From positions 289,347-353,346 of the forward strand of contig OZ253484.1 in the NCBI GenBank assembly GCA_965261825.1: 64,000 bases of DNA. The letters are read 5' to 3'. Position numbers and translations under genes: made by a program. Source of the stretch: Dehalococcoidia bacterium (GTDB taxonomy: Bacteria; Chloroflexota; Dehalococcoidia; Lucifugimonadales; QGNO01). Below the pieces are notes generated by a model, which saw only the letters and a list, made by a program, of their open reading frames with translations, searched no databases and was not told where the DNA came from. Positions 4,988-61,266 of the stretch are shown here, piece after piece (positions within the stretch are counted from its first letter, which is position 1; the number at the start of each line of letters is the position of its first letter).

Positions 4988-5100
4988 TCTGGCTTCCCTC
5001 CACATCTGATATGAGGTCATTCTGCCAGTACGCTCTCGCACTTTCAACATCTTCAACCGTACACGCGCGTTAGAGTTCCAACCATTGCTATAATCAGTCC

Positions 5101-6108
5101 ATGGACTTGCGCAAGATTGGAGAGTTTGGGCTTATCCGCCGGCTGGAAGCAATGGCCAAGCAGGAGGGAGTCGCTGCTTCCCGCGACCAAGCCTTTGCCC
5201 TCGTCGTCGGTATTGGCGATGACGCCGCTGCTTGGCGCATTGATACCGCGGGCCTGATTGAGCTCTCCACCACGGATACCATGGTGGAAGAGGTGCATTT
5301 TACCAGGAGCACCACTCCCTGGCAGGACGTGGGATGGAAGGCCATGGCCTCCAACCTCAGCGATCTGGCTGCCATGGGAGGCTCTCCCACCTATGCCCTG
5401 GTTACCCTTGGCCTGCCGGGCAACGTTTTGGTTGAGGATGTTGACGCTGCGTTTCAAGGCGTTGTCCGGGCCTGCAAGACCTACGGCGCGGTCATTGCCG
5501 GCGGGGACGTTGTTTCCTCACCGTTCTTCTTCATTACCATTGCCCTGAATGGCCTGGTTCGCGGGCAACCCATGCTGCGTTCCGCGGCTGTACCCGGCGA
5601 TGTCATAGGGGTTACAGGCCATTTGGGATTGTCCCGCGGCGGGCTGGAGCTGATGATGCGCCATTCCAGGGTGGATTCGGATGCCGCCCGGGAGCTTGTC
5701 CGGGCGCACCGTCATCCCCTACCCAGGCTGCAGGAAGGCCACGTCCTTCTGGAGGAGAGGGTGCGTGCCGCAATGGACGTCAGCGATGGTCTGGTGGACG
5801 ACCTGAAGAAGATGATGCTTGCCAGCAGTACGGCCGCCCGTATCTTCTCCAAGGATATAGCCATTCATCCCGCCCTTGGGCAAACTTTCCCCGGGGATGC
5901 TCTTCGCCTGGCCCTTGCCGGAGGTGAAGAGTACGAGCTGCTCTTCACTGCTTCCGGCGAGGTGTTTCAACGCGTAAAGGAACGTCTACCTTCCGTCTCC
6001 ATCATTGGTGAAGTCACCGGTGAAAAGTCGGGAGAGGTCATCGTCTATGATGAAAACGGAAGTCCTATATTGGACGTAGGGCCCGGCTGGGATCACTTGC
6101 ATAGATGA
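5101..6108 (+). CDS. thiL: Thiamine-monophosphate kinase
   Basis: 335 aa. IGEFGLIRRL, GIGDDAAAW, TTDTMVEEVHF, SNLSDLAAMGG and AGGEEYELLFT are typical ThiL/AIR-synthase-related motifs. Confidence 0.9.
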   Translation: MDLRKIGEFGLIRRLEAMAKQEGVAASRDQAFALVVGIGDDAAAWRIDTAGLIELSTTDTMVEEVHFTRSTTPWQDVGWKAMASNLSDLAAMGGSPTYALVTLGLPGNVLVEDVDAAFQGVVRACKTYGAVIAGGDVVSSPFFFITIALNGLVRGQPMLRSAAVPGDVIGVTGHLGLSRGGLELMMRHSRVDSDAARELVRAHRHPLPRLQEGHVLLEERVRAAMDVSDGLVDDLKKMMLASSTAARIFSKDIAIHPALGQTFPGDALRLALAGGEEYELLFTASGEVFQRVKERLPSVSIIGEVTGEKSGEVIVYDENGSPILDVGPGWDHLHR

Positions 6109-6694: not shown

Positions 6695-7654
6695 CTATGC
6701 CTGCACCGTGAGCCGTCTCAGATCCTCCGTCTTAGACTCCAGGTGGTCACCCAGGCCAATCCGGCCGGATACTCGTGTCCCAGCCATCCTCAGCCCAATG
6801 ACGGCTGGGATGGCGACGCCGGTGGGCCCCAGAAGCGTGCCGATGGCGTCGTAGACCGTGGCCCTGCCTATTCGATTCGCTCCCGTCCGCAGTGACTCCC
6901 GGAAGGTGGAGCGTCCCATCAAAAGGTTTCTTCCCTCCATGACTCCGGTCATGGCGACGGCCACGAAGGGGATGGAGTCGAGGGCCGCTTCGGCGCCCTT
7001 GTCTAGCAGGTCTTCGGCCATACCCTCGCTGTGCTCGTCAAGCTGTGCTTTCGTCACGCTCTCCAGTTGTTGATTGGAGATGCCGGTGCCGAGGATTTCA
7101 TCGGCCGTGTCATCGATCTCCGAGGTCGTAGCGACCCGGATATCGGGGTATTTTTCCAGGGCTTCCTTGACGTAGCCGAGAGAATCGGTAGCTTTGGCCT
7201 GAATCTCCTCGGCTACGGACCCGTCTTCGTTCGCTATCACCAAGTCCCATCCCGGCTGCGTCGACGACTCAGCGAGCTTGGCAACCTGCCCGGGCTCCAA
7301 CTCGATCTCGTCAAGACGCTCTCCAGCGTTGAGACGGTCGCGCGCCAGGACTTCGAAGTACTTGCCTTTAACCCCGTTGGCCAGACCGCTGAGCCGCTCT
7401 TCAGATGAGCCTTGAAGGGACTCCAGGCTGACGTTGGGGTACTGAAGCCGGAAGGCCTGCAGAAACTGTGGGTCGGCGTTTGGCTCAAGCCCCAGGTTGG
7501 TGATCCTGTCAAGCGATACGTCGACGGCTAATGCGGCTATGTCCAGGACCTGCCGCTCGCCTCGACTCCTGTACTCCTGGGCTAACTCGTGGAGAGTTTC
7601 CCGATTCTGGGGCGGATATGACTCTGCGAGCGCTACAAGCTGTTCGTATCCCAT
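6695..7654 (-). CDS. Hypothetical protein with a PD-(D/E)xK-like motif arrangement and a C-terminal Gly-rich hydrophobic region
   Basis: 319-aa ORF with good coding appearance. The central segment KGKYFEVLARDRL...PGWDLVIANEDGSVAEEIQAKAT has the E...D...(E/Q)xK spacing of restriction-endonuclease-fold proteins. The C-terminus has two hydrophobic Gly/Ala-rich stretches (IPFVAVAMTGVMEG, LLGPTGVAIPAVIGLRMAG). I recognise no family. Confidence 0.55.
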   Translation of the reverse strand: MGYEQLVALAESYPPQNRETLHELAQEYRSRGERQVLDIAALAVDVSLDRITNLGLEPNADPQFLQAFRLQYPNVSLESLQGSSEERLSGLANGVKGKYFEVLARDRLNAGERLDEIELEPGQVAKLAESSTQPGWDLVIANEDGSVAEEIQAKATDSLGYVKEALEKYPDIRVATTSEIDDTADEILGTGISNQQLESVTKAQLDEHSEGMAEDLLDKGAEAALDSIPFVAVAMTGVMEGRNLLMGRSTFRESLRTGANRIGRATVYDAIGTLLGPTGVAIPAVIGLRMAGTRVSGRIGLGDHLESKTEDLRRLTVQA

Positions 7655-7664
7655 CGATACAGCC

Positions 7665-8045
7665 TCACAGGAGCAGCGCTAGAATGCTCAAGGCTAGCGC
7701 TACGATGGATACAGCGCCCGATGCGACAACCCAAGGAGACGGGCTGTGCTTCACACGCGCTATATCGCCTCTCAGTGTGTCGTGTTCCTGCTGCAGAGCA
7801 TGGAGCGATTGCTCCGTACGGACAAGTTGCTCCCGCAGTTCGGCCTGATCCTGATGCACGCCGATGACGGCCGTGGTGGCTGCCTCCGTGAAATCCTCGA
7901 ACCTGCGTATATCTGCACCGGACATCACCTCGGCGGAACGTCGCACACTCTGCCTGGCAGCACCAGCCGCAACCCCAACTCTACCCAATATACTGGGACT
8001 ACTCTTGTCTCCAGGCTCCTCTTCTTCGTCGTTTCTCTTCACCAA
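7665..8045 (-). CDS. Hypothetical tail-anchored coiled-coil membrane protein
   Basis: The C-terminus SPWVVASGAVSIVALALSILALLL is a single TM at the very end. It is preceded by the heptad-like stretch QAELREQLVRTEQSLHALQQEHDTLRGDIARV. The start is uncertain. TTG at 8045 has GGAGG 9 nt upstream; ATG at 7925 is the alternative. It lies 10 nt upstream of 6695..7654 on the same strand. Confidence 0.45.
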   Translation of the reverse strand: MVKRNDEEEEPGDKSSPSILGRVGVAAGAARQSVRRSAEVMSGADIRRFEDFTEAATTAVIGVHQDQAELREQLVRTEQSLHALQQEHDTLRGDIARVKHSPSPWVVASGAVSIVALALSILALLL

Positions 8046-8268
8046 CTCTGCGCACCTCCCTGAACATGCTGGGAGTCGAATCTTAGCACAAACGATGGCC
8101 TCCCCGCATGCGGGGATAGACCCTGCGTGGTATCTCGAATACAATGCCTCGCGGGTTCGGCACCACGTAGGGATAGACACAGACTAGCTAATTGCGAAAG
8201 AAGAAATGGCAAGTGACCCAGATGCACCGTCGCTTGCTCTGTAAGAGCACACAACACAAGGAGGGACC

Positions 8269-14968: not shown

Positions 14969-15030
14969 CTATGACAAAATCCTGTATGCAAAAGGGGCAT
15001 CCAACCCCCGTTTGCCTACGTATTGACTGA

Positions 15031-15036
15031 TATAAT
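15031..15036 (+). promoter_or_regulatory. Candidate -10 box (TATAAT) placed for a leaderless or very short-leader transcript of the first selenoprotein gene
   Basis: A perfect TATAAT lies 7 nt upstream of ATG 15044. I could not place a convincing -35. Confidence 0.3.
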
Positions 15037-15043
15037 AGAGTCC

Positions 15044-15718
15044 ATGTTTTCCTCCGCAATCAAAAAGCGGTGCGTTGCCCTTGCAGCGCCTCTTTTGCTG
15101 TTCAGCATAGCCTGCACTACCGAAGTGGGCACTACACCGACTACAGTCGCGCCTACGGATACGCCAACTCCAACCGTTACTCCACCCTCATTAATTCCTA
15201 CGAACACGCCAACCTCAGGCGTGCCAACCTCTCCGCCGCCGCCTACGAACACTCCGACGCCAATGCCTGCACCTCCGGCGGAAACGGGAAACCGGGTTGG
15301 CAACATGGCGCCTGATTTCACTCTGACAGAGGTATCCACGGGCCAGCCCGTCCAGTTGGCCGAGTTGACAGCACAGGGGCGTCCTGTAGTCCTCTTCTTC
15401 TTCACCACCTGGTGACCGACTTGCCGCACCGAGTTACGGATGCTAAAGGATGTTTACCCGGAATACCAGGAGTCCGTGGATTTCTATGCACTGGGCATCG
15501 ATCCAACAGAAGGTCTGAGTGCCCTGGTCAGGTTCAGAGATGGACAGGACCACCCGTGGCCGGTGGCCAAGGCTCCGGCTGCCATGCTTCCGCAGTACAA
15601 TGTCTTGCAGCAGTCCACCAAGGTGGCCATAGATAGCAATGGAGTAATAGTGTTCCGTGAAGGTTACGGCGTAGAGGACACTGAGACCTGGGTCCGGCTG
15701 TTCCGTGAGCTTTCCTAG
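15044..15718 (+). CDS. Thioredoxin-fold thiol:disulfide oxidoreductase lipoprotein (TlpA/ResA-like), predicted selenoprotein with in-frame UGA (Sec) at 15413..15415
   Basis: Track ORFs 15023..15415 and 15440..15718 are in the same frame. Reading through gives ...RPVVLFFFTTW-U-PTCRTELRMLKDVYPEYQ..., so the TGA sits at the first Cys of the WCxxC redox motif. The N-terminus MFSSAIKKRCVALAAPLLLFSIAC has a lipobox, followed by a Thr/Pro-rich linker. Confidence 0.8.
15426..15443 (+). promoter_or_regulatory. Candidate bacterial SECIS hairpin (copy 1)
   Basis: GCACCGAGUUACGGAUGC begins 10 nt after the UGA. GCA/UGC plus CCG/CGG pair, with a bulged A and apical loop AGUUA. Possible outer pairs are CUU/AAG. 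It is nearly identical in copy 2. Confidence 0.5.
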
Positions 15719-15729
15719 GTGTAGCGCCT

Positions 15730-16557
15730 ATGTTTTTCTCAACAAGAAAGCGATCTGTTGTCCTTGCAGCGCCTCTTTTGCTGTTCAGCATAGCCTGCAC
15801 TAGCGAGGTGGGCACTACACCGACTCCAATCGCGCCTACAGTTACTCCAACATCGGTCGCGCCAGCGGATACGCCAACTCCAACTACTGTCCCCCCCACA
15901 GCTACCTCCACACTTACACCCACGCTGACGCTTCAGGATCAGCTACTTCAGGAGCGTGTAGTACTTCAGGAGCTTGTAGCTGCAAGAGCCACGGCTACGG
16001 CTCTGACGCCGACACCAACGCCAACGCCAACTGTTGCCGTACCTGTGCAGTGGCAACTCCAACCCCTACAACCTTTGCCTACGAACACGCCAACGCCAAT
16101 GGCTGGATCTCCGGCGGAAACAGGGAACCGGGTTGGCAACCTGGCGCCTGATTTTACCCTGACAGAGGTGTCCACGGGCCAGCCCGTTCAGTTGGCCCAA
16201 CTGACCGAACAGGGACGCCCCGTAGTCATCTACTTCTTCACCACTTGGTGACCGTATTGCCGCACCGAGTTACGGTTGCTAAAGGACATCTACCCTGAAT
16301 ACCAGGACTCTGTGGATTTATACGCGGTGAACATAGATCTAGGTGAAGACCTAAGTTCCATAGTCAGGTTTAGAGATGAACAGGACCATCCCTGGCCGGT
16401 GGCGCAGGCGCCTGCTGAAATGCTTCCGCTGTACAATCCCATCGCGGTGCCATTCAAGGTAGCCATAGATAGGAATGGAATAGTAGCGTTCCGAGGAAAA
16501 GGGGCAGATCCACCTGAGACCTTGCACCACGTATTCCAGGAGCTTTCCCAGGTGTAG
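15730..16557 (+). CDS. Thioredoxin-fold thiol:disulfide oxidoreductase lipoprotein (TlpA/ResA-like), predicted selenoprotein with in-frame UGA (Sec) at 16249..16251
   Basis: Track ORFs 15730..16251 and 16276..16557 are in frame. Read-through gives ...RPVVIYFFTTW-U-PYCRTELRLLKDIYPEYQ.... Lipoprotein signal MFFSTRKRSVVLAAPLLLFSIAC. The TP-rich linker is longer than in copy 1. The gene starts 11 nt after the copy 1 stop. Confidence 0.8.
16262..16279 (+). promoter_or_regulatory. Candidate bacterial SECIS hairpin (copy 2)
   Basis: GCACCGAGUUACGGUUGC sits at the same 10-nt distance from the UGA and has the same predicted pairs as copy 1. The only change is A to U in the bulge. Confidence 0.5.
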
Positions 16558-16604
16558 CGCCGCCATTTCAGGGGCGCCTTCCCTGTGATATATATAGCCC
16601 TACT

Positions 16605-52852: not shown

Positions 52853-52989
52853 GTCACCACTCCTAACTTATCACACTCTTGCTCCATCCGGTCGGGGCCG
52901 GTCCCGCCGGATGGCTCATCGGAGCCGCAGGCCGCGAGCGTCATCAGCAGAGCCAGCGCGATAGCGGTGAGCAGTAGTTCTCTATGCAT
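52849..52989 (-). CDS. Small putative lipoprotein (46 aa), translationally coupled to the propeller-peptidase gene
   Basis: Translated by hand (below the ORF-track size cutoff): MHRELLLTAIALALLMTLAACGSDEPSGGTGPDRMEQECDKLGVVT. Lipobox LAAC. Its TGA overlaps the downstream ATG (ATGA). Confidence 0.45.
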   Translation of the reverse strand: MHRELLLTAIALALLMTLAACGSDEPSGGTGPDRMEQECDKLGVVT

Positions 52990-53186
52990 GTTGCAATATC
53001 ATCACGTTCAAGTCTAGCCAAACATGGGATTCACCAGCCTATTATAGGACTGAAGGGCATGTTTCACAATGCTCTGCCGATATAACGTATCTGTTCTAGC
53101 CGCAGACCAGTATCCCTGTCCTTTGCTCTCCCTGGAATGGCCGGGTAGGAGCAGCGGCCGATCACAGTACCAGAGCGAAGGAAATG

Positions 53187-53218
53187 GTAAAGGTTCTTGA
53201 TTTTATCAAGTCTGGTGG
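53187..53218. repeat. 32-bp repeat core, copy A (contains hairpin CTTGAT-TTT-ATCAAG at 53196..53210)
   Basis: gtaaaggttcttgattttatcaagtctggtgg. By direct comparison, 29 of 32 positions are identical to 59747..59778 and 24 of 32 to 63148..63179, all in the same orientation. Confidence 0.85.
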
Positions 53219-53296
53219 ACGGGGGAGAATCGAACCGCCATCGTGGGCCACTCGTGCACTTTAGCTATGAGGCCCTAGCTGACCGACCCCGACTCC
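53213..53296 (-). repeat. tRNA-3'-end-like 84-nt unit, copy A (not a foldable tRNA)
   Basis: The minus strand ends ...GGCGG-TTCGATT-CTCCC-CCGTCCA-CCA (T-loop, acceptor-like, CCA). The 5' end GGAGTCGGGG can pair with CCCCGTCC if 2 nt bulge. The middle did not fold into D or anticodon arms by eye. Confidence 0.6.
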
Positions 53297-53300
53297 GACA

Positions 53301-53309
53301 GGGGGGGGG
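53301..53309 (+). repeat. G9 homopolymer at the inner edge of repeat unit A
   Basis: Nine consecutive G read directly (acagggggggggtcag). Confidence 0.95.
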
Positions 53310-53645
53310 TCAGACTGAGGGCCGGGCGGCTGGGGCCGCCGACCCCCGCTGACCCGAGAGAAAGAAAATCAGCCTCCCGGACGGCCCGGTGTGGGGGTGT
53401 GCGCCGGGCCGTCGGCCCTCGATGGGGAGAGAGGATGCCCCGCAGACAGGGGCCAGGGGCTGGCCCGGGCCACGGCGGCGATCAGGTGGGGTTCCTCCTC
53501 ACTGTGACAACGACACGAGCGGCAGGGGGCGAAACGCGTCCCTGCTCGCAGACGCCTGTGACCTCGTGGCGGGCTGATAATTGAGATGCGGCGAAAGCTG
53601 AACTACGTTTCAACTGGCCCCAGTGGTCCCGTGGGAGTCCCCCGA

Positions 53646-53963
53646 CTATCGAACGGCGTTCACTTCGAGCTGGACACCCTCGTGCTGCTGAATCCGGCTG
53701 ATGACGTCGAACAGGTTGCGGGCGTGGGGATTGCCGTCCGGTCCGAACATACGCATCAGACTCTTGGGCTGCTTGTTTGTGAGGGAGCCGAGCTCCTCGA
53801 ACCCGATGGTGGCGTTGATGTAGTCGCACAGCACGATCTTGCCTGCATCGACGTCCCCTGCCAGCAGGCACTCGACGCCTTCCTTCAGCAACCCTTCTCG
53901 AAATGCCGGGTCGCGCTCGGCTCGGGCCTGCACGGTCTCCCTGAAATCACGGGTGAGCGGCAT
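53646..53963 (-). CDS. HigA-type addiction-module antidote protein (HTH antitoxin)
   Basis: 105 aa. MPLTRDFRETVQARAERDPAFREGLLKEG...GFEELGSLTNKQPKSLMRMFGPDGNPHARNLFDVI matches the 'putative addiction module antidote protein' family as I recall it. Confidence 0.85.
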   Translation of the reverse strand: MPLTRDFRETVQARAERDPAFREGLLKEGVECLLAGDVDAGKIVLCDYINATIGFEELGSLTNKQPKSLMRMFGPDGNPHARNLFDVISRIQQHEGVQLEVNAVR

Positions 53964-53966
53964 GTT

Positions 53967-54297
53967 TCACACCTCCTGTTGCTTGCGACGCTTGTACTCC
54001 TGCCAAAGATCGCGGGCATCCTCGATGTCCCTCTGCTGGCGTTCCTTGGTCCCACCGCCGAGCAGGACTATCAACGTGTCTCCGTCCCTGCCGAAAATAG
54101 ACTCTGTAGCCCGGGCCGATGTGTATACGGCGCTCCAGCACGCCGCTCCCGACGCCTCTGACGTTGGACAGGTTCCCCGACTCCATGCGGGCTAGGATCG
54201 TCCTTACCCTGGTCGCTGCCCCGGCGTCGAGACCGTCGAACCAACGACCGAATGGACTGCTGCCTCGCTCGTCGATGTATTCTCTGATCTCGATCAT
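53967..54297 (-). pseudogene. HigB/RelE-type addiction-module killer protein, frameshifted
   Basis: The N-terminal part [68 protein letters not shown] is family-typical. The family-typical C-terminus [41 protein letters not shown]-stop continues in another frame, after an extra base in the A/T run at 54094..54097. Confidence 0.8.
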
Positions 54298-54530
54298 GGC
54301 AAAACGGTAACAGAAGCGTTACTATGATTTCAAGCCTAGTAGCGTGGGGTTCATTTGGTTACCTTTGTCGGAAAGAACATCCGACATTCTGTTGTATGCG
54401 AACGAGGTGCCTCATGTGCAAGACTCAGAGAAACCATGAAGCCGTCGCGAGCACTCCGAGGCCATTCATCTACCGCGTCGAGAAGACAGGCCATCTCAAG
54501 TCGGTAGCCATCCCATAAGCAGGCCATGCC

Positions 54531-54822
54531 ATGACTAACACCCTGTACTACGGCGACAACCTGGAAATCCTGCGGCAGCACGTCGGCGACGAGTCGGTCG
54601 ACCTGGTGTACCTGGACCCGCCCTTCAACTCGAACGCCAATTACAACGTGCTGTTCAAGGAGCGGTCGGGCGAGGAGTCGCCCGCCCAGATCAAGGCGTT
54701 CACCGACACGTGGGAATGGACCCAGGAGTCGGAGAGGACGTTCGAGCAGGAGATCGTCCTGAACCCAAGCAGTTGGTGGCCGTTGTCGGGTGTCAACTTC
54801 TCACCCTGGGGTAAGAGGTCGA
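54531..54822 (+). pseudogene. N6/N4 DNA methyltransferase (PF01555-like), N-terminal fragment only
   Basis: MTNTLYYGDNLEILRQHVGDESVDLVYLDPPFNSNANYNVLFKERSGEESPAQIKAFTDTWEWT carries the DPPF motif IV. The SAM-binding C-terminal half is missing. The reading frame runs into repeat unit B and stops at 54875. Confidence 0.8.
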
Positions 54823-54907
54823 GGTGGACGGGGCTGGAATCGAACCGCCATCGTGGTGCCACTCGTGCACTTTAGCTAGGAGCCCACTCGTGACCGACCC
54901 CGACTCC
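54823..54907 (-). repeat. tRNA-3'-end-like unit, copy B (diverged, no CCA)
   Basis: Aligns with copy A over its full length with small indels and substitutions (roughly 85-90% identical by eye). Similarity stops at the same boundaries in both copies (..ggtggacgggg on the left, ..ccgactccgaca on the right). Confidence 0.6.
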
Positions 54908-55025
54908 GACACGGCTGTGCGCACGTATCGCCTGGCGACAGCTGCTCTCCGAATAGTAGTGTGAAGGGCGGTTGTTCGGCGGAGTCAAGTCAGGCAGTGC
55001 GACCCGAGAAGGAAGGAAGGCCATT

Positions 55026-57972: not shown

Positions 57973-59655
57973 GTGCTGACCTTCCGGCGGGCCGACGGGC
58001 GGGAGGTCTCCCTGGAGGAGTTCCCCCTGTCCCAGGGACTGAGCACGGGGGAGACGGTGCGGGCCGAGGAGATCGTCCTCCAGGCCCCCGACGGGCGGAG
58101 CGTCACCACCCTGATCAACGCCACGTCCATCCGCTCCGAGGAGGGCGAGGTCGAGTCGGTGGTCGTGACCATGCAGGACATGACGCCGATGGAGGAGTTG
58201 GAGCGGCTGCGGGCCGAGTTCCTGGGCATGGTGAGCCACGAGCTGAGGACGCCGCTGGCCGCCATCAAGGGCTCAGCCGCCACGCTGACGGAGGCGGCCT
58301 CCGACCTAGACCCCGCCGAGATGCTCCAGTTCTTTCGCATCATCGGCGAGCAGGCCGACTACATGCGCGACCTGATCGGCGACCTGCTCGACGTGGCGCG
58401 CATCGAGACGGGCGAGCTGTCGGTGGCCCCCGCGCCTGCGGACATGGCGACCCTGGTGGACGAGGCCAGGAGCAGGTTCCAGAGCGGAGGGGGCAGGAGC
58501 AACCTCCGCATCGACCTGCCCCCGGAGCTGCCGCTGGTCATGGCGGACGGGCGCCGCATCATCCAGGTGCTGAACAACCTCCTCACCAACGCGGCCGGGC
58601 ACTCCCACGAGGCGTCCGCCATCGGGGTGTCCGCCGTGCGGGAGGGCTACCACGTGGCGGTCTCGGTCACGGACGAGGGCAGAGGGATAGCCGCCGAGCG
58701 GCTGCCGCACCTGTTTCGGAAGTTCTCCCGCATCGACGGCGAGGACCGGAGACGGGACATCGCGGGGTCGGGCCTGGGCCTCGCCATCTGCAAGGGGATA
58801 GTGGAGGCCCACGGGGGCCGGATATGGGCCGAGAGCGACGGGCCGGGCCTGGGGGCGCGGTTCACCTTCACCATTCCGGTGGCCCAGGGCGCCGCTATCG
58901 GGCCCACCCATCTCCCGGTGCGCTCTAGGCGGACGGAGAGAGAACGGGAGCGCATCCTCGCGGTGGACGACGACCCGCAGACGCTGCGGTACGTCCGGGA
59001 CGCGCTCGCCAGGGCGGGCTACGCGCCGATCGTGACCGGCGACCCGCAGGAGGCGACGAGCCTCGTCCGGGCGAACGACCCCCACCTGGTGCTGCTGGAC
59101 CTGATGCTGCCGGGGACCGACGGCATCGAGCTGATGGGGGATATCCTCGATATGGCGGACGTGCCGGTCATCTTCCTGTCGGCCTACGGCCAGGAGGAGA
59201 ACATCGCCAGGGCTTTCGAGAATGGAGCCGACGACTACGTGGTCAAGCCCTTCTCGCCGACGGAGCTTGTGGCGAGGATCAAGGCGGCCCTGCGCAAGCG
59301 GGAAGCGCCCGAATGGGCCGAGCCGTCGGAACCCTACGTGTTTGGAGAGCTGACCATCGACTACGCCGAGCGCCGCGTGACGCTGGCCGGGCGTCCCGTG
59401 CAGCTGACCGCCATCGAGTACGGGCTGCTCTTCGAGCTATCGGCCAACGCCGGCCGCGTGATGACCTACGACCGGCTGCTGCAACGGGTCTGGGGCCTGC
59501 GGGGCTCCGGGGACTCGCGGCGGGTGCGCACCGCCGCGAAGCAGCTCCGCCGCAAGCTGGGCGACGACGCCAACAACCCCACCTACATCCTCAACGAACC
59601 CCGCGTCGGCTACCGGATGCCGAGGGGAGAGACGCCGGGAGCGGAGGAATCGTGA
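57973..59655 (+). CDS. Fused sensor kinase / OmpR-type response regulator (PAS fragment-HisKA-HATPase-REC-winged helix), probably 5'-truncated
   Basis: H-box FLGMVSHELRTPLAAI; HATPase NLLTNAAGHS, DEGRGI, GSGLGLAICK. REC ILAVDDDP, LVLLDLMLPGTDG, DYVVKPF. wHTH LTAIEYGLLFEL...PRVGYRM. The frame stays open upstream to about 57841 without a start, and PAS-like sequence begins abruptly near 57915, where GC content jumps. Confidence 0.8.
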   Translation: MLTFRRADGREVSLEEFPLSQGLSTGETVRAEEIVLQAPDGRSVTTLINATSIRSEEGEVESVVVTMQDMTPMEELERLRAEFLGMVSHELRTPLAAIKGSAATLTEAASDLDPAEMLQFFRIIGEQADYMRDLIGDLLDVARIETGELSVAPAPADMATLVDEARSRFQSGGGRSNLRIDLPPELPLVMADGRRIIQVLNNLLTNAAGHSHEASAIGVSAVREGYHVAVSVTDEGRGIAAERLPHLFRKFSRIDGEDRRRDIAGSGLGLAICKGIVEAHGGRIWAESDGPGLGARFTFTIPVAQGAAIGPTHLPVRSRRTERERERILAVDDDPQTLRYVRDALARAGYAPIVTGDPQEATSLVRANDPHLVLLDLMLPGTDGIELMGDILDMADVPVIFLSAYGQEENIARAFENGADDYVVKPFSPTELVARIKAALRKREAPEWAEPSEPYVFGELTIDYAERRVTLAGRPVQLTAIEYGLLFELSANAGRVMTYDRLLQRVWGLRGSGDSRRVRTAAKQLRRKLGDDANNPTYILNEPRVGYRMPRGETPGAEES

Positions 59656-59746
59656 GTGGCCGAGCCTGTCCTCTCCGTTCGTGGCAAGTCCTCGCCCGGC
59701 GGGTAGGGGTGAGGCCCCTAACTACACCGCCAGCTTGAACCTCAAC

Positions 59747-59778
59747 GTAAAGGTTCTTGATTTTATCCAGTTGGGTGG
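59747..59778. repeat. 32-bp repeat core, copy C
   Basis: gtaaaggttcttgattttatccagttgggtgg. It abuts the point where replication-relaxation-like sequence ends (59780). Confidence 0.85.
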
Positions 59779-59779
59779 G

Positions 59780-61266
59780 CCAGTAGTAGCCCGTATAAGT
59801 GCTCAGGCGGGCGATGACTCCCCTGGGGTGGCGGGCGCGAAGCTCGTACTCAAGATAGAACGGCACGTGAAGGCCGCCGGCGACCAGGTGACCTACGGCG
59901 TCGGGTGCGATGGCGGACTCTCCCCAGTTGTAGGCCCGGTCGGACCTGGCGGTGGGGACCGTCCACTGGAGTTCGCTCGACGAAGCTTCCCTAGTCTCAG
60001 CCTCAAGCGCCGACAGGAACCACGTGATGCCGTCTGCGTGCTTCGTCTGCCGCGCCCACGTGTCGATGCGGTGGCCGACGTGCCGCCTGCGGCCCTGGCG
60101 GTCGGTGGTGAGGGCTGTGCTCCAGATGCCTCGCGTGGTGGGGAGCTGGGCGCGGTCCCTGTGGGTGACGTAGCGAATGCCCTCGGCGGACAACGCGAAG
60201 CGGGTGTCGCCTCGTTGTCCTCGTCGCTCGACAAGGCTCCAGGTATCGACCAGGGTGCGCATCATCTGGCTTACGCGCCCCTCGGAGACGCCGAGCCAGC
60301 GGGCAAGGTGCTCACGGGGGATCATCAGGTGGTCGGTCACGAGGTCGAGCGTCCGCTTCTCCGAGGGGCTGATGCCGAAGGCCGGCGCAGCCTGCACCAG
60401 CCGCTCGGGACGGGGCAGCGAAGCCCGCTTCCGTTCCGGCGACGCGGTGCGAAGCCCTCCTCCGGGGCTGCCGTGGGCGCTCACGTCCTTCAGCGTGTGG
60501 TACGAGCTGCCGAACACCCACGAGGGTTCACACCAGAGGCGAAGGTCCCGTCTTTCGAGCCCGTCCCTGGTTTCCACGGCGACGAAGCAGTCATCGAGGT
60601 TCAAGTTTATGCAGAACCTCGTCGTCAGCCTCTCCTCCCAGACGCTCGGCGTCAGGACCAGGGTGGCATCTGGGCGTCGGGTGTAGTCGTACCCCGCGAT
60701 TGCTCTCAGCCGGTCGTAGAGAGACCGGCGCCGTAGGGCCAGACCCTGGCGCACCACGCCGAAGCTGCGGCCGTCGTGGAGGGTGATGGTGGCGTCGAAG
60801 CGGCCCCTGCGGTGGAACTCCACGTGTGAACGAAGGAATCGGATGCCGGGGGACAGTGAGGCGGCGAGACGGTAGACGGCGGCCACAGCGTCCATCCGGC
60901 GGATGAGCAGCGCCAGCCACTCCCTGGACACAGGGTAGGCGCGTACGAAGTCCGAGGGCGTGTCGAAGCCGAGCATCCCGGCGGCCTGTCTGATGCCCTG
61001 GGCTGTCAGGTAGTATCGCTGGCTCGACGGAGGTGGGCGGTTCCGTGGCCCTCCCTCCCCGCGTTGCCGTGGCCCTCCCTCCCCGCGTTGCCGTGGGCCA
61101 ACGCCAACAGGCCGGTCAAAGCGCGGTGGACTGTCGCGTGCGGCTCCCCAAGGATGCCCGCCAGCTCCGCCGAATCAACGAATGGCATACGGCTGAGGGA
61201 ATCGAGTAGCCGTTGGTCGGAAGGAGCCACGTGTCGAGCGTAGCAAAAGAGGGGCGCGCTGTGCAT
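59780..61266 (-). pseudogene. Replication-relaxation family protein (mobile-element type), frameshifted and 3'-truncated
   Basis: Track ORFs 61006..61266 and 59591..60976 join into one family-like sequence (...HGTAHL / PSSQRYYLTAQGIRQAAGMLGFDTPSDFVRAYPVSREWL...) only if one base is restored near 61029..61033. Family-like sequence stops after ...RLSTYTGYYW at the 32-bp core. There is also an in-frame 24-bp duplication. Confidence 0.7.
61043..61090. repeat. Perfect 24-bp tandem duplication inside the replication-relaxation pseudogene
   Basis: ccgtggccctccctccccgcgttg occurs twice back to back (61043..61066 and 61067..61090). It encodes the duplicated HGNAGREG. Confidence 0.95.

Follow-up and report, generated by a model that had tools for sequence, protein, structure and literature searches.

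Two tandem lipoprotein genes of a Dehalococcoidia bacterium are probable UxxC selenoprotein genes of the thioredoxin fold

Two neighbouring genes in a 64,000-nucleotide stretch of Dehalococcoidia DNA (the whole of the analysed sequence, here called the window) are each interrupted by one in-frame TGA. They very probably encode intact, lipid-anchored, extracytoplasmic U-x-x-C thiol/selenol-disulfide oxidoreductases that are decoded via SelB and a SECIS element. What carries this reading is a UGA conserved at the position of the first active-site cysteine (Cys1), a covarying hairpin behind it, conservation of coding sequence on both sides, and linkage to selA and selB in relatives; the insertion of selenocysteine (Sec) as such is inferred, and so are lipid attachment, export, the action as a reductase and its substrates. 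The two proteins, copy 1 and copy 2, belong to an already known kind, the Prx-like or TlpA-like UxxC selenoproteins. Thioredoxin-fold selenoproteins with a UxxC motif have been known since 2004-2005, and the finding overturns nothing established.

The genes stand in tandem on the + strand, and their features are listed here in order of position.

15028..15036, + strand: putative promoter, extended -10-like TGATATAAT, 7 nt upstream of the copy 1 ATG (pattern search)
15044..15718, + strand: copy 1, predicted full-length selenoprotein gene, 224 aa with U124, stop TAG (read-through translation)
15044..15115, + strand: copy 1 predicted signal peptide with lipobox, MFSSAIKKRCVALAAPLLLFSIA-C24, Cys codon at 15113-15115 (pattern match)
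15116..15277, + strand: copy 1 Thr/Pro-rich linker (tether), residues 25-78
15413..15415, + strand: copy 1 TGA, predicted Sec124, replacing the first Cys of W-C-x-x-C; resolving Cys127 at 15422-15424
15426..15443, + strand: copy 1 putative SECIS hairpin, GCACCG-AGUUA-CGG(A)UGC, with a 5-nt loop on a 6-bp stem that has a single bulged A
15717..15721, + strand: Shine-Dalgarno-like AGGTG, 8 nt upstream of the copy 2 ATG and overlapping the copy 1 stop
15730..16557, + strand: copy 2, predicted full-length selenoprotein gene, 275 aa with U174, stop TAG (read-through translation)
15796-15798, + strand: copy 2 predicted lipobox Cys23 (sequence pattern)
16249..16251, + strand: copy 2 TGA, predicted Sec174; resolving Cys177 at 16258-16260
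16262..16279, + strand: copy 2 putative SECIS hairpin, GCACCG-AGUUA-CGG(U)UGC

In the list of open reading frames the two genes appear as four fragments (15023-15415, 15440-15718, 15730-16251 and 16276-16557), which pair in frame within each copy and are separated inside each pair by the TGA and eight sense codons. Checking the sequence bore out this layout as the original prediction had described it, and the read-through sequences it had quoted match the translation exactly: FFFTTW, the stop and PTCRTELRMLKDVYPEYQ in copy 1, and YFFTTW, the stop and PYCRTELRLLKDIYPEYQ in copy 2. The start of copy 1, however, is likely to be the ATG at 15044 and not the TTG at 15023 where the called fragment begins; its conserved domain starts at 15278 (tblastn). 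The longer linker that had been noted in copy 2 is present, but exceeds that of copy 1 by 50 aa rather than by about 45, and it contains a non-Thr/Pro segment, LQDQLLQERVVLQELVAARATATAL. Other candidates for in-frame TGA codons in the window were discarded as Arg/Pro-rich off-frame noise of this 59% GC sequence.

A sigma-70 -35/-10 consensus scan returned no promoter in the region upstream of copy 1. The layout TGnTATAAT-(6-7 nt)-ATG is found ahead of family genes at 13 related loci as well (L001=L003 counted once), and TGATATAAT may be a promoter from which the copy 1 mRNA would start with no leader or almost none. As the AGGTG in front of copy 2 overlaps the stop codon of copy 1, the two genes are probably co-transcribed.

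When C is substituted for the stop, each copy forms a single complete AhpC-TSA/Redoxin domain that is unbroken across the UGA: copy 1 spans positions 1-121 of 124 of the PF00578 profile (E=6e-17) and copy 2 positions 2-140 of 148 of PF08534. The TGA codon aligns with Cys1 of the CxxC motif in the PDB entries 4nmu (ResA, tWCkpC) and 2ls5 (sWCgvC), and also in the Cys homologues P0018 and P0054, which agrees with the claim that it replaces the nucleophilic first Cys of WCxxC. The active-site motif of copies 1 and 2 is W-U-P-T/Y-C, and the PDB sequence matches include ResA, CcmG/DsbE, StoA and tryparedoxins. Both copies carry the lipobox, LLLFSIAC, and the Thr/Pro-rich tethers that had been reported for them; by pattern match only, the lipobox recurs in about 35 of 39 family copies, distant ones included. 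Such a layout suggests that both proteins would be lipid-anchored and extracytoplasmic.

Downstream of the UGA, every family copy contains a hairpin of 6 bp capped by an AGUU(A/G/U) loop, whose stem begins 13 nt after the U of the UGA; in copy 1 this corresponds to 10 nt from the UGA to the stem and 16 nt from the UGA to the loop. A covariance model of the family matches within the window at the two hairpin sites only (copy 1, 30.6 bits, E=3e-5; copy 2, 31.5 bits, E=2e-5). In an alignment where each sequence was stripped of its bulged base in the way that gave the most pairing, 100% of the cells pair and 4/6 pairs change on both sides, with pair 4 alternating between A-U, G-C and U-A. The covariation score is 0.363 as compared with 0.092 in shuffles, of which 0/500 reach it, and with at most 0.077 in slid registers; the unedited model-based alignment agrees on covariation at pair 16-37. 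The same constraint is visible in the codons: synonymous sites within the hairpin are invariant (Arg CGC 36/36, Glu GAG 40/40, Arg CGG 37/37), whereas outside it the Arg codon at -11 uses five codons, Glu at +16 is either GAA or GAG, and the downstream halves show ordinary synonymous variation.

The published model of bacterial SECIS elements has a loop of 3-9 nt, a stem of 4-16 bp and 16-37 nt between UGA and loop (PMC13188914, Fig. 2), together with a G at the first or second loop position and a U after it, and a threshold of -7.5 kcal/mol (PMC13188914). Loop, stem and spacing of all copies fall within these ranges and the loop has its G and U in place, the spacing of 16 nt lying at the lower edge of 16-37. 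The energy of the hairpin alone is -6.4 kcal/mol in both copies, and when it is enforced in a 45-nt context copy 1 reaches -8.3 and copy 2 -7.2 kcal/mol against the threshold of -7.5; relatives with perfect stems range from -12 to -20 kcal/mol. A search of Rfam at the hairpins matched neither SECIS nor any other family. What had been sought downstream of each TGA is therefore present as a conserved, covarying hairpin that fits the model in loop, stem and spacing and is marginal in stability, and we regard the two hairpins as putative SelB-binding SECIS elements.

Is it selenocysteine that enters at these codons? That recoding is site-specific follows from the hairpin and the conserved UGA, whichever amino acid is inserted. 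UGA might instead be read as Cys, through a tRNA-Cys-like UCA tRNA and a SelB-like factor, or as Trp or Cys by hairpin-stimulated near-cognate read-through. Cys insertion by such a tRNA and factor has reportedly been proposed for some bacteria by Mukai and colleagues. A reading of this sort would also suit the searches for tRNA-Sec and selD: ARAGORN found no tRNA-Sec in the window and 28 loci, and a search for selD with an approximate query matched only ThiL orthologues and gave none in the fetched related loci. The 64-kb window, whose sole AIRS-family protein is ThiL, has neither of the two, and selA and selB are missing from it as well.

Against it stands the company that the family keeps. 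In 10 related contigs a third paralogue of the family has selA 2-5 kb upstream of it, and the selA product is a genuine SelA, the maker of Sec-tRNA(Sec) (TIGR00474, 563 bits; cut-off 268). One of these contigs (894,250 bp) is collinear with the window and has selA 63 kb downstream of the tandem pair. Judging from collinearity with ERZ25069580:ctg105494 and OZ252212.1, selA and a third paralogue would be expected some 14-20 kb past the 3' end of the window. In L021, a more distant relative, selB is found about 3 kb from a family member (TIGR00475, 339 bits against 242), and this SelB carries winged-helix domains; all matches to it in a search were from the near kin of L021, among them one labelled SAR202 cluster at its source. 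Taken with the fact that thioredoxin-fold UxxC selenoproteins are an established class (PMC13188914, PMC1088965), this leaves insertion of an amino acid other than Sec a slim chance.

Nonsense mutations could also have inactivated two redoxin paralogues whose fragments are now decaying, and both the splitting of the genes by gene callers and a window without Sec machinery would be compatible with such decay. However, the TGA occupies the active-site codon in 50/50 readable related copies, which come from independent assemblies of Dehalococcoidia genomes and metagenomes and are 31-100% identical, and its invariance reaches the copies at 31-35%. This sample consists of 45 copies from 26 Dehalococcoidia loci of a species-representative genome collection, with extra tandem copies included and several loci spanning one and the same genomic region, plus 5 more. 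Coding sequence is conserved on both sides of the TGA down to about 31% identity, as had been asked of the downstream halves in particular, other stops and frameshifts are absent, and outside the hairpin the synonymous sites vary in the ordinary way. Conservation thus effectively refutes decay, to which we give hardly any credence.

The members of this family are missed by ORF calling almost throughout, just as the original prediction had it for the two copies: public protein sets store them almost only as N- or C-terminal fragments. The 55 homologous protein clusters comprise 29 C-terminal fragments, 23 N-terminal fragments ending in FF(T/A)TW, and 3 full-length Cys forms; the C-terminal fragment of copy 1 is cluster P0001 and the N-terminal fragment of copy 2 is P0034. 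Inside the clade Cys forms are nearly absent (1 of about 53 close clusters). The sole close one, P0018/L032, comes from a 788-bp contig; its N-terminus is odd and its hairpin has decayed in part. We take it for a probable Sec-to-Cys conversion and give it little weight. All TGA-bearing members that were found are from Dehalococcoidia, where the family is arranged in tandem arrays of 2-3 with a further copy adjoining selA, and where genomes with more than one recovered locus have 2-4 family genes.

A variant genetic code, with UGA as a sense codon (Trp or Gly) throughout the genome, has only the two in-frame TGAs themselves to recommend it. It is already refuted by stop-codon usage and keeps a negligible probability: TGA terminates 14/40 Pfam-supported genes of the window, folE and the HK/RR fusion among them, at the full length of their domains, and in-frame TGAs are restricted to one codon position of one family. 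The claim that the recoding is site-specific stands on the same count. Equally negligible are sequencing or assembly errors at a true TGC or TGT, which is one base away, or halves made as separate polypeptides, for which copy 1 offers an ATG eight codons downstream. Short-read and long-read assemblies of many samples agree on the TGA, the C-terminal fragment 'starts' in copy 2 and most relatives at a Leu TTG within a conserved helix, and a thioredoxin fold would not survive a cut through its active site.

If both copies are selenoproteins, as we prefer to read them, a lipobox-bearing signal peptide and a long Thr/Pro-rich tether would in each precede a thioredoxin-fold domain of the TlpA/ResA type, with W-U-x-x-C as its active site. 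Following established bacterial Sec biology, the hairpin 10 nt after the UGA would recruit SelB-GTP and Sec-tRNA(Sec) to the ribosome, so that the UGA would be read as selenocysteine and not as a stop. With less certainty, the mature protein may be lipid-anchored at the outer face of the cytoplasmic membrane, where Sec might attack a substrate disulfide (or a sulfenate or peroxide), the Cys at +3 might resolve the selenenylsulfide, and re-reduction might come from a CcdA/DsbD-type electron shuttle in the membrane. Substrate and reaction direction are both guesses, because the scores of both copies are far below the NCBIfam cut-offs and no partner genes lie near family members.

A more far-reaching view would make this a distinct selenoprotein subfamily, known to date from Dehalococcoidia alone, surface-tethered and TlpA-like, with Sec nearly always in place and a compact SECIS, in which the linkage to selA and selB ties the family functionally to the handling of selenium at the cell surface and is more than plain synteny. 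We consider this rather unlikely; if it were true, the tie could mean reductive selenium acquisition or maintenance of the Sec trait.

What can be learned from such a family? It would add extracytoplasmic, lipid-anchored members to the UxxC selenoproteins, and it fits the picture of selenoprotein-rich Dehalococcoidia (BSepDB, PMC13326102). For annotation, 52/55 of the clusters found are meaningless fragments in public protein sets, and proteome-based analyses therefore miss what would be a multi-copy surface redox enzyme in Dehalococcoidia. The putative SECIS is also unusually clean and minimal: within 18 nt, pairs of amino acids covary so as to keep the RNA stem, which would make it suitable for studies of SelB-SECIS specificity.

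Set against known elements, the hairpin resembles the fdhF-type SECIS of E. coli in lying within the coding sequence just 3' of the UGA and in its small apical loop. With bacterial SECIS elements in general it shares the G and U in second and third place of the loop, the one bulged base that many family copies have and a distance of about 10-11 nt from UGA to stem. It differs from them in being very short (6 bp) and weak (-6.4 kcal/mol), in having its bulge on the 3' strand and in lacking a match in Rfam.

Among extracytoplasmic thiol-disulfide oxidoreductases, ResA, CcmG (DsbE), TlpA and StoA are like the two copies in their thioredoxin fold, their W-C-x-x-C-type motif and, as predicted for the copies, their membrane-anchored, extracytoplasmic position, and ResA is the best match by sequence in both PDB and NCBIfam (4nmu, E=2.5e-11; NF002854). 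The scores of copies 1 and 2 are nevertheless low: 55-60 bits against 170 for the ResA subfamily (NF002854), 31-35 against 123-359 for DsbE, 21-26 against 230 for TlpA and 34-43 against 210 for StoA. The description as TlpA/ResA-like consequently holds at the level of fold and motif, but fails as family membership, and the copies are therefore taken to work like ResA, DsbE, TlpA or StoA, outside any named orthologue group. They differ from these proteins in having Sec for Cys1 and a lipobox and tether as anchor instead of a transmembrane helix.

Within about 10 kb, in the window and the neighbour-annotated loci, there are no genes for cytochrome c maturation, Sco or CcdA/DsbD, although such partners may lie at more remote sites of the genome. 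No neighbour is conserved across the whole family, and for both reasons we draw no functional conclusion from the neighbourhood. Two unrelated HAD hydrolase families recur beside members in different clades, and class-V aminotransferases recur at L027 and L028.

An identity as peroxiredoxin (TxxU Prx) was considered and ruled out. The sequence P-V-V-L-F-F-F-T-T-W-U-P-T-C has its Pro at -10 rather than at the -7 of the peroxidatic motif P-x-x-x-T-x-x-C/U, and its U-x-x-C is of the thioredoxin type. The 'Prx-like' proteins of the literature have this thioredoxin-type UxxC too (PMC1088965). With the selenoproteins described as 'Prx-like thiol:disulfide oxidoreductase' and 'thiol-disulfide isomerase-like protein' (PMC13188914 Table 1, PMC1088965), the copies have in common a PF00578 or cd02966-type domain and UxxC. 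They belong to the same domain family (best Pfam PF00578, then PF08534), Sec replaces Cys1, and a SECIS would follow just downstream. All of these UxxC families are predicted only, without biochemical characterisation (PMC13188914, PMC1088965). The published reference proteins are WP_010940744.1 and MGB1650493.1; our comparison with the families goes by domain and motif, so that either label could apply. The copies are set apart from them as lipoproteins with long Thr/Pro tethers, encoded in tandem arrays with a further copy by selA.

More distant matches, with E about 7e-5, lead to the thioredoxin-family PDB entries 2yp6 and 4hqz, which we take to be the surface-exposed lipoproteins Etrx1 and Etrx2 of Streptococcus pneumoniae. 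Etrx1 and Etrx2 are paralogues, lipid-anchored on the surface of a monoderm cell, with MsrAB2 and CcdA as partners. They differ from copies 1 and 2 in having Cys and not Sec, the similarity is distant, and MsrAB2 and CcdA were not found near the two copies. As a functional analogy, Etrx1 and Etrx2 nonetheless offer a plausible picture of what the two proteins might do: redox repair at the cell surface.

Four ORF fragments on the forward strand, 15044-16557, form two in-frame pairs, each broken by one TGA (15413-15415 in copy 1, 16249-16251 in copy 2) and each with eight sense codons between the TGA and the next possible start, as had been claimed. The original prediction described the genes accurately except for two details, the length of the extra linker in copy 2 and the start of copy 1, which is probably ATG 15044.

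15044-15718, forward strand: copy 1, read-through MFSS...FFFTTW-TGA-PTCRTELRMLKDVYPEYQ...RELS, 224 aa
15730-16557, forward strand: copy 2, read-through MFFS...YFFTTW-TGA-PYCRTELRLLKDIYPEYQ...LSQV, 275 aa

With Cys substituted for the in-frame stop, each product appears in Pfam as a single unbroken AhpC-TSA/Redoxin domain (copy 1 matches PF00578 over profile positions 1-121 of 124, E=6e-17; copy 2 matches PF08534 over 2-140 of 148). In matches to solved structures the stop falls on the first of the two CxxC cysteines, both in ResA (4nmu, E=2.5e-11) and in 2ls5 (E=7.5e-15), so that the TGA does take the place of this Cys, as proposed. The lipobox and Thr/Pro-rich tethers ascribed to both proteins can likewise be read from their N-termini, where a signal peptide closed by LLLFSIAC precedes the linker; that of copy 2 is indeed longer, by 50 aa rather than the ~45 first estimated. 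By pattern match, the lipobox is kept in ~35 of 39 copies of the family, that is, lipoprotein redoxins with an in-frame TGA at the first Cys of W-C-x-x-C. Long-linker paralogues (copy 2 at 15931-16005; protein clusters P0033, P0039, P0041 and P0043) share a conserved mid-tether, non-Thr/Pro segment, LQDQLLQE...ARATATAL, which may be a short helix or interaction motif.

How widely is the interruption shared? When the catalytic domain was searched against ~5.8 billion predicted proteins, 55 clusters matched. C-terminal fragments of 80-96 aa, which start at the M/L of ...R(M/L)LKD..., account for 29 and N-terminal fragments ending in ...FF(T/A)TW for 23; the other three are full-length Cys forms, namely P0018 (53% identical, with AAWCPTCRTELRRLK) and the distant P0054 and P0055. 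The whole family is therefore cut at one codon in public data. A second scan, of one genome per prokaryotic species, returned 27 loci, 26 of them from Dehalococcoidia MAGs or complete chromosomes; all 26 have a stop at the aligned position, and the sole Clostridia match has Cys. Local tblastn showed 11 loci to contain additional copies, in tandem runs of two or three. TGA is present in 45/45 copies of the fetched loci, several of which cover the same genomic region, and in 5/5 from loci fetched later. These 50 copies span 100% to ~31% identity to copy 1 and are conserved as protein on both sides of the TGA, downstream halves included, which excludes both pseudogenes and sequencing error. Genome-wide reassignment of UGA is excluded as well, since TGA terminates 14 of the 40 Pfam-supported window genes (TAG 24, TAA 2); the preference originally voiced for site-specific insertion over a variant code thus holds. 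TAG is usually the rarest bacterial stop, and its dominance, seen also at the ends of most family copies, is out of the ordinary in a genome of 59% GC and may be linked to heavy UGA use for selenocysteine (Sec) in the lineage.

A search for a SECIS element, the mRNA hairpin 3' of a Sec UGA, identified GCACCG-AGUUA-CGG(A/U)UGC in both window copies, starting 13 nt after the U of UGA.

15426-15443, forward strand: SECIS hairpin of copy 1, (A) form
16262-16279, forward strand: SECIS hairpin of copy 2, (U) form

In 50/50 copies the same place can fold into a 6-bp stem capped by an AGUU(A/G/U) loop, the stem being perfect, bulged after pair 3 or bulged after pair 4. Compensatory changes occur at pair 4 (A-U, G-C, U-A or G-U), in the distant loci L027 and L028 (CCUCUG/CAGGGG) and in one copy of locus L008 (UAUCCG/CGGAUG). 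Because the hairpin sits within coding sequence, they are mirrored in the protein by residues that covary: Thr goes with Leu/Met, Ala with Leu/Ser/Arg, and Ser encoded by UCC with Ser encoded by AGC. With 32 distinct sequences aligned and the bulged base taken out, its position picked per sequence to maximise pairing, all cells pair, 4/6 pairs vary on both sides, and the covariation score is 0.363 against 0.092 +/- 0.021 for shuffles (0/500) and <=0.077 for slid registers. The unedited covariance-model alignment, which puts the two outer pairs out of register in the bulged class, gives for pair 16-37 AU 13, UA 12, GC 5, GU 4, UG 2 and other 2. Whatever the alignment choice, synonymous sites over the hairpin are invariant (Arg+4 CGC 36/36, Glu+6 GAG 40/40, Arg+8 CGG 37/37); outside it, Arg-11 uses five codons and Glu+16 both GAA and GAG.

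The bacterial SECIS model limits loop size, stem length, first loop bases and UGA-to-loop spacing (PMC13188914). The hairpin agrees with it in loop size, in stem length and in having G, then U, among the first loop bases, and its spacing of 16 nt is the model's lower limit. Its stability is marginal: alone it folds at -6.4 kcal/mol, and in context copy 1 reaches -8.3 and copy 2 -7.2, where the threshold is -7.5. Trained on the perfect-stem class, a covariance model picks out these two sites and no others in the window, and nothing but family sites in 581 kb of related DNA; no Rfam family matches the hairpin. In the single close Cys form (TGC) the hairpin is partly decayed, scoring 16 bits with this model. 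The Clostridia MAG locus L029 (~1417-1659), the only match outside Dehalococcoidia, reads WCPYC and has a strong GC-rich hairpin whose AGCU loop begins 16 nt beyond the Cys codon; the family model gives no match there, and the hairpin is probably a chance product of GC-rich DNA.

The window itself encodes two tRNAs, for Leu and Lys; tRNA-Sec is absent, as are SelA, SelB and SelD among the ~45 ORFs scanned. Its one AIRS-family protein, at 5101-6108, is ThiL (TIGR01379, 264 bits vs cut-off 184). Evidence for the Sec machinery from relatives is strong. A selA equivalog (TIGR00474, 563 bits vs cut-off 268) lies 2-5 kb upstream of the short-linker paralogue in L001/L003, L002, L007, L010, L011, L012, L014, L016, L030/L031 and L036, and in several of these genomes the tandem pair also occurs, among the same genes as in the window. 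Locus L004 shares with the window tRNA-Leu/tRNA-Lys ~10 kb upstream; L035 shares the order M17 peptidase, MFS, radical SAM, MBL, DnaJ, pair, followed by MFS, Reg_prop, aminotransferase, rhomboid, PEP mutase and DAO. L035 and L036 are one 894,250-bp contig (ERZ25069580:ctg105494), on which the pair is followed, 63 kb downstream, by selA and a third paralogue; selA of the source genome is therefore expected ~14-20 kb past the window end. In the more distant L021, a selB equivalog (TIGR00475, 339 bits vs 242) with SelB winged-helix domains lies ~3 kb from a family member. No selC or selD was seen in the fetched flanks. Close relatives (~72-100% identity in the C-terminal domain; L035/L036, and OZ252212.1 with L003 and L004) have at least three paralogues: the tandem pair, set among the same genes as here, and a short-linker copy that follows selA at 2-5 kb, with ~63-69 kb between the selA copy and the pair. 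L008 and L022 hold three family copies in tandem.

The invariant TGA, the hairpin, normal stop use and sel genes in relatives support the selenoprotein interpretation, and we are confident that both copies are intact selenoprotein genes, with SelB and Sec-tRNA(Sec) decoding the UGA. By the established scheme of Sec insertion in bacteria, the 18-nt hairpin would recruit these two to the UGA. The products would be lipoproteins on the membrane's outer face, held by a flexible Thr/Pro linker and each carrying a TlpA/ResA-type domain with W-U-x-x-C, in which Sec would act as the attacking nucleophile and Cys+3 as the resolving residue. Analogy with ResA, CcmG and TlpA, and with two thioredoxin-family proteins (PDB 2yp6 and 4hqz) that we take to be the Etrx surface lipoproteins of Streptococcus pneumoniae, inclines us towards tethered reductases of extracytoplasmic disulfides or oxidised residues.

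Gene neighbourhoods point in no common direction. CcdA/DsbD, cytochrome c maturation and Sco genes are absent near members in the window and annotated related loci, and those neighbours that do recur (from two unrelated HAD families, the class-V aminotransferases and the UGSC family) are each specific to a clade. A 2-haloacid-dehalogenase-like HAD hydrolase stands directly upstream of members in one clade (L022, L023, L025, L026, L033); in the window's clade a different HAD comes after selA. Upstream of the most distant members lie class-V aminotransferases (L027 7581-8780 and L028 5940-7136, both reverse strand) of PF00266, the cysteine desulfurase / selenocysteine lyase superfamily. In L033 and L034 (8387-8938, reverse strand) two small PF24696 'UGSC' genes lie directly downstream of the member, on the opposite strand; as the name points to a (seleno)protein family, they may form a local selenoprotein gene cluster with it. 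The selA/selB linkage suggests a functional tie of this surface redoxin family to selenium handling, which we regard as improbable.

An extended -10-like motif, TGnTATAAT (or TGATATATA), lies 6-9 nt upstream of three window start codons.

5086-5094: -10-like motif before thiL, ATG 5101
15028-15036: -10-like motif before copy 1, ATG 15044
16586-16594: -10-like motif before the MFS gene, GTG 16605

It is kept before family genes in L001/3, L004, L006, L007, L009-L012, L014-L016, L030 and L035. Such closeness to the starts, conserved in relatives, suggests leaderless or near-leaderless mRNAs, a selenoprotein gene included. Elsewhere in the window, a 2.1-kb stretch without a Pfam-supported gene (52853-54971) contains a frame (~53950-54318, reverse strand) that opens like a RelE/ParE-type 'addiction module killer' toxin (MIEIREYIDERGSSPFGRWFDGLD...GYRVYF), then seems to lose frame, and may be a frameshifted toxin pseudogene. 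ORFs of 461, 319 and 171 aa at 59591-60976 and 6695-8180 (both reverse strand) have no Pfam match at E<=1e-5, and the final 4 kb (59.7-64 kb) has no recognisable gene.

How do the two proteins compare with known systems? They are not orthologous to any named TlpA/ResA-type member (55-60 bits vs cut-offs of 123-359), and they lack the PxxxTxxC geometry of peroxiredoxins. Thioredoxin-fold UxxC selenoproteins are among the prokaryotic selenoprotein families (PMC13188914; in metagenomes, PMC1088965), the listed ones including a 'Prx-like thiol:disulfide oxidoreductase' (PF00578, UxxC) and a 'thiol:disulfide interchange protein' (PMC13188914, PMC1088965); members of the former are distantly homologous to Prx and carry a UXXC motif of thioredoxin-like type (PMC1088965). 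Dehalococcoidia MAGs with 46-49 selenoprotein genes are among the richest bacteria in a 2026 database paper (PMC13326102). Our literature search found no paper specifically on this lipoprotein subfamily. Recognizing the pair as selenoproteins is useful for annotation and will not surprise a selenoprotein specialist. Placed by the published family descriptions, it is a lineage-specific, multi-copy, lipid-anchored subfamily of the known UxxC kind: hardly any Cys forms occur in the clade, the very compact SECIS is highly conserved and shows amino-acid covariation, and one paralogue is persistently linked to selA.
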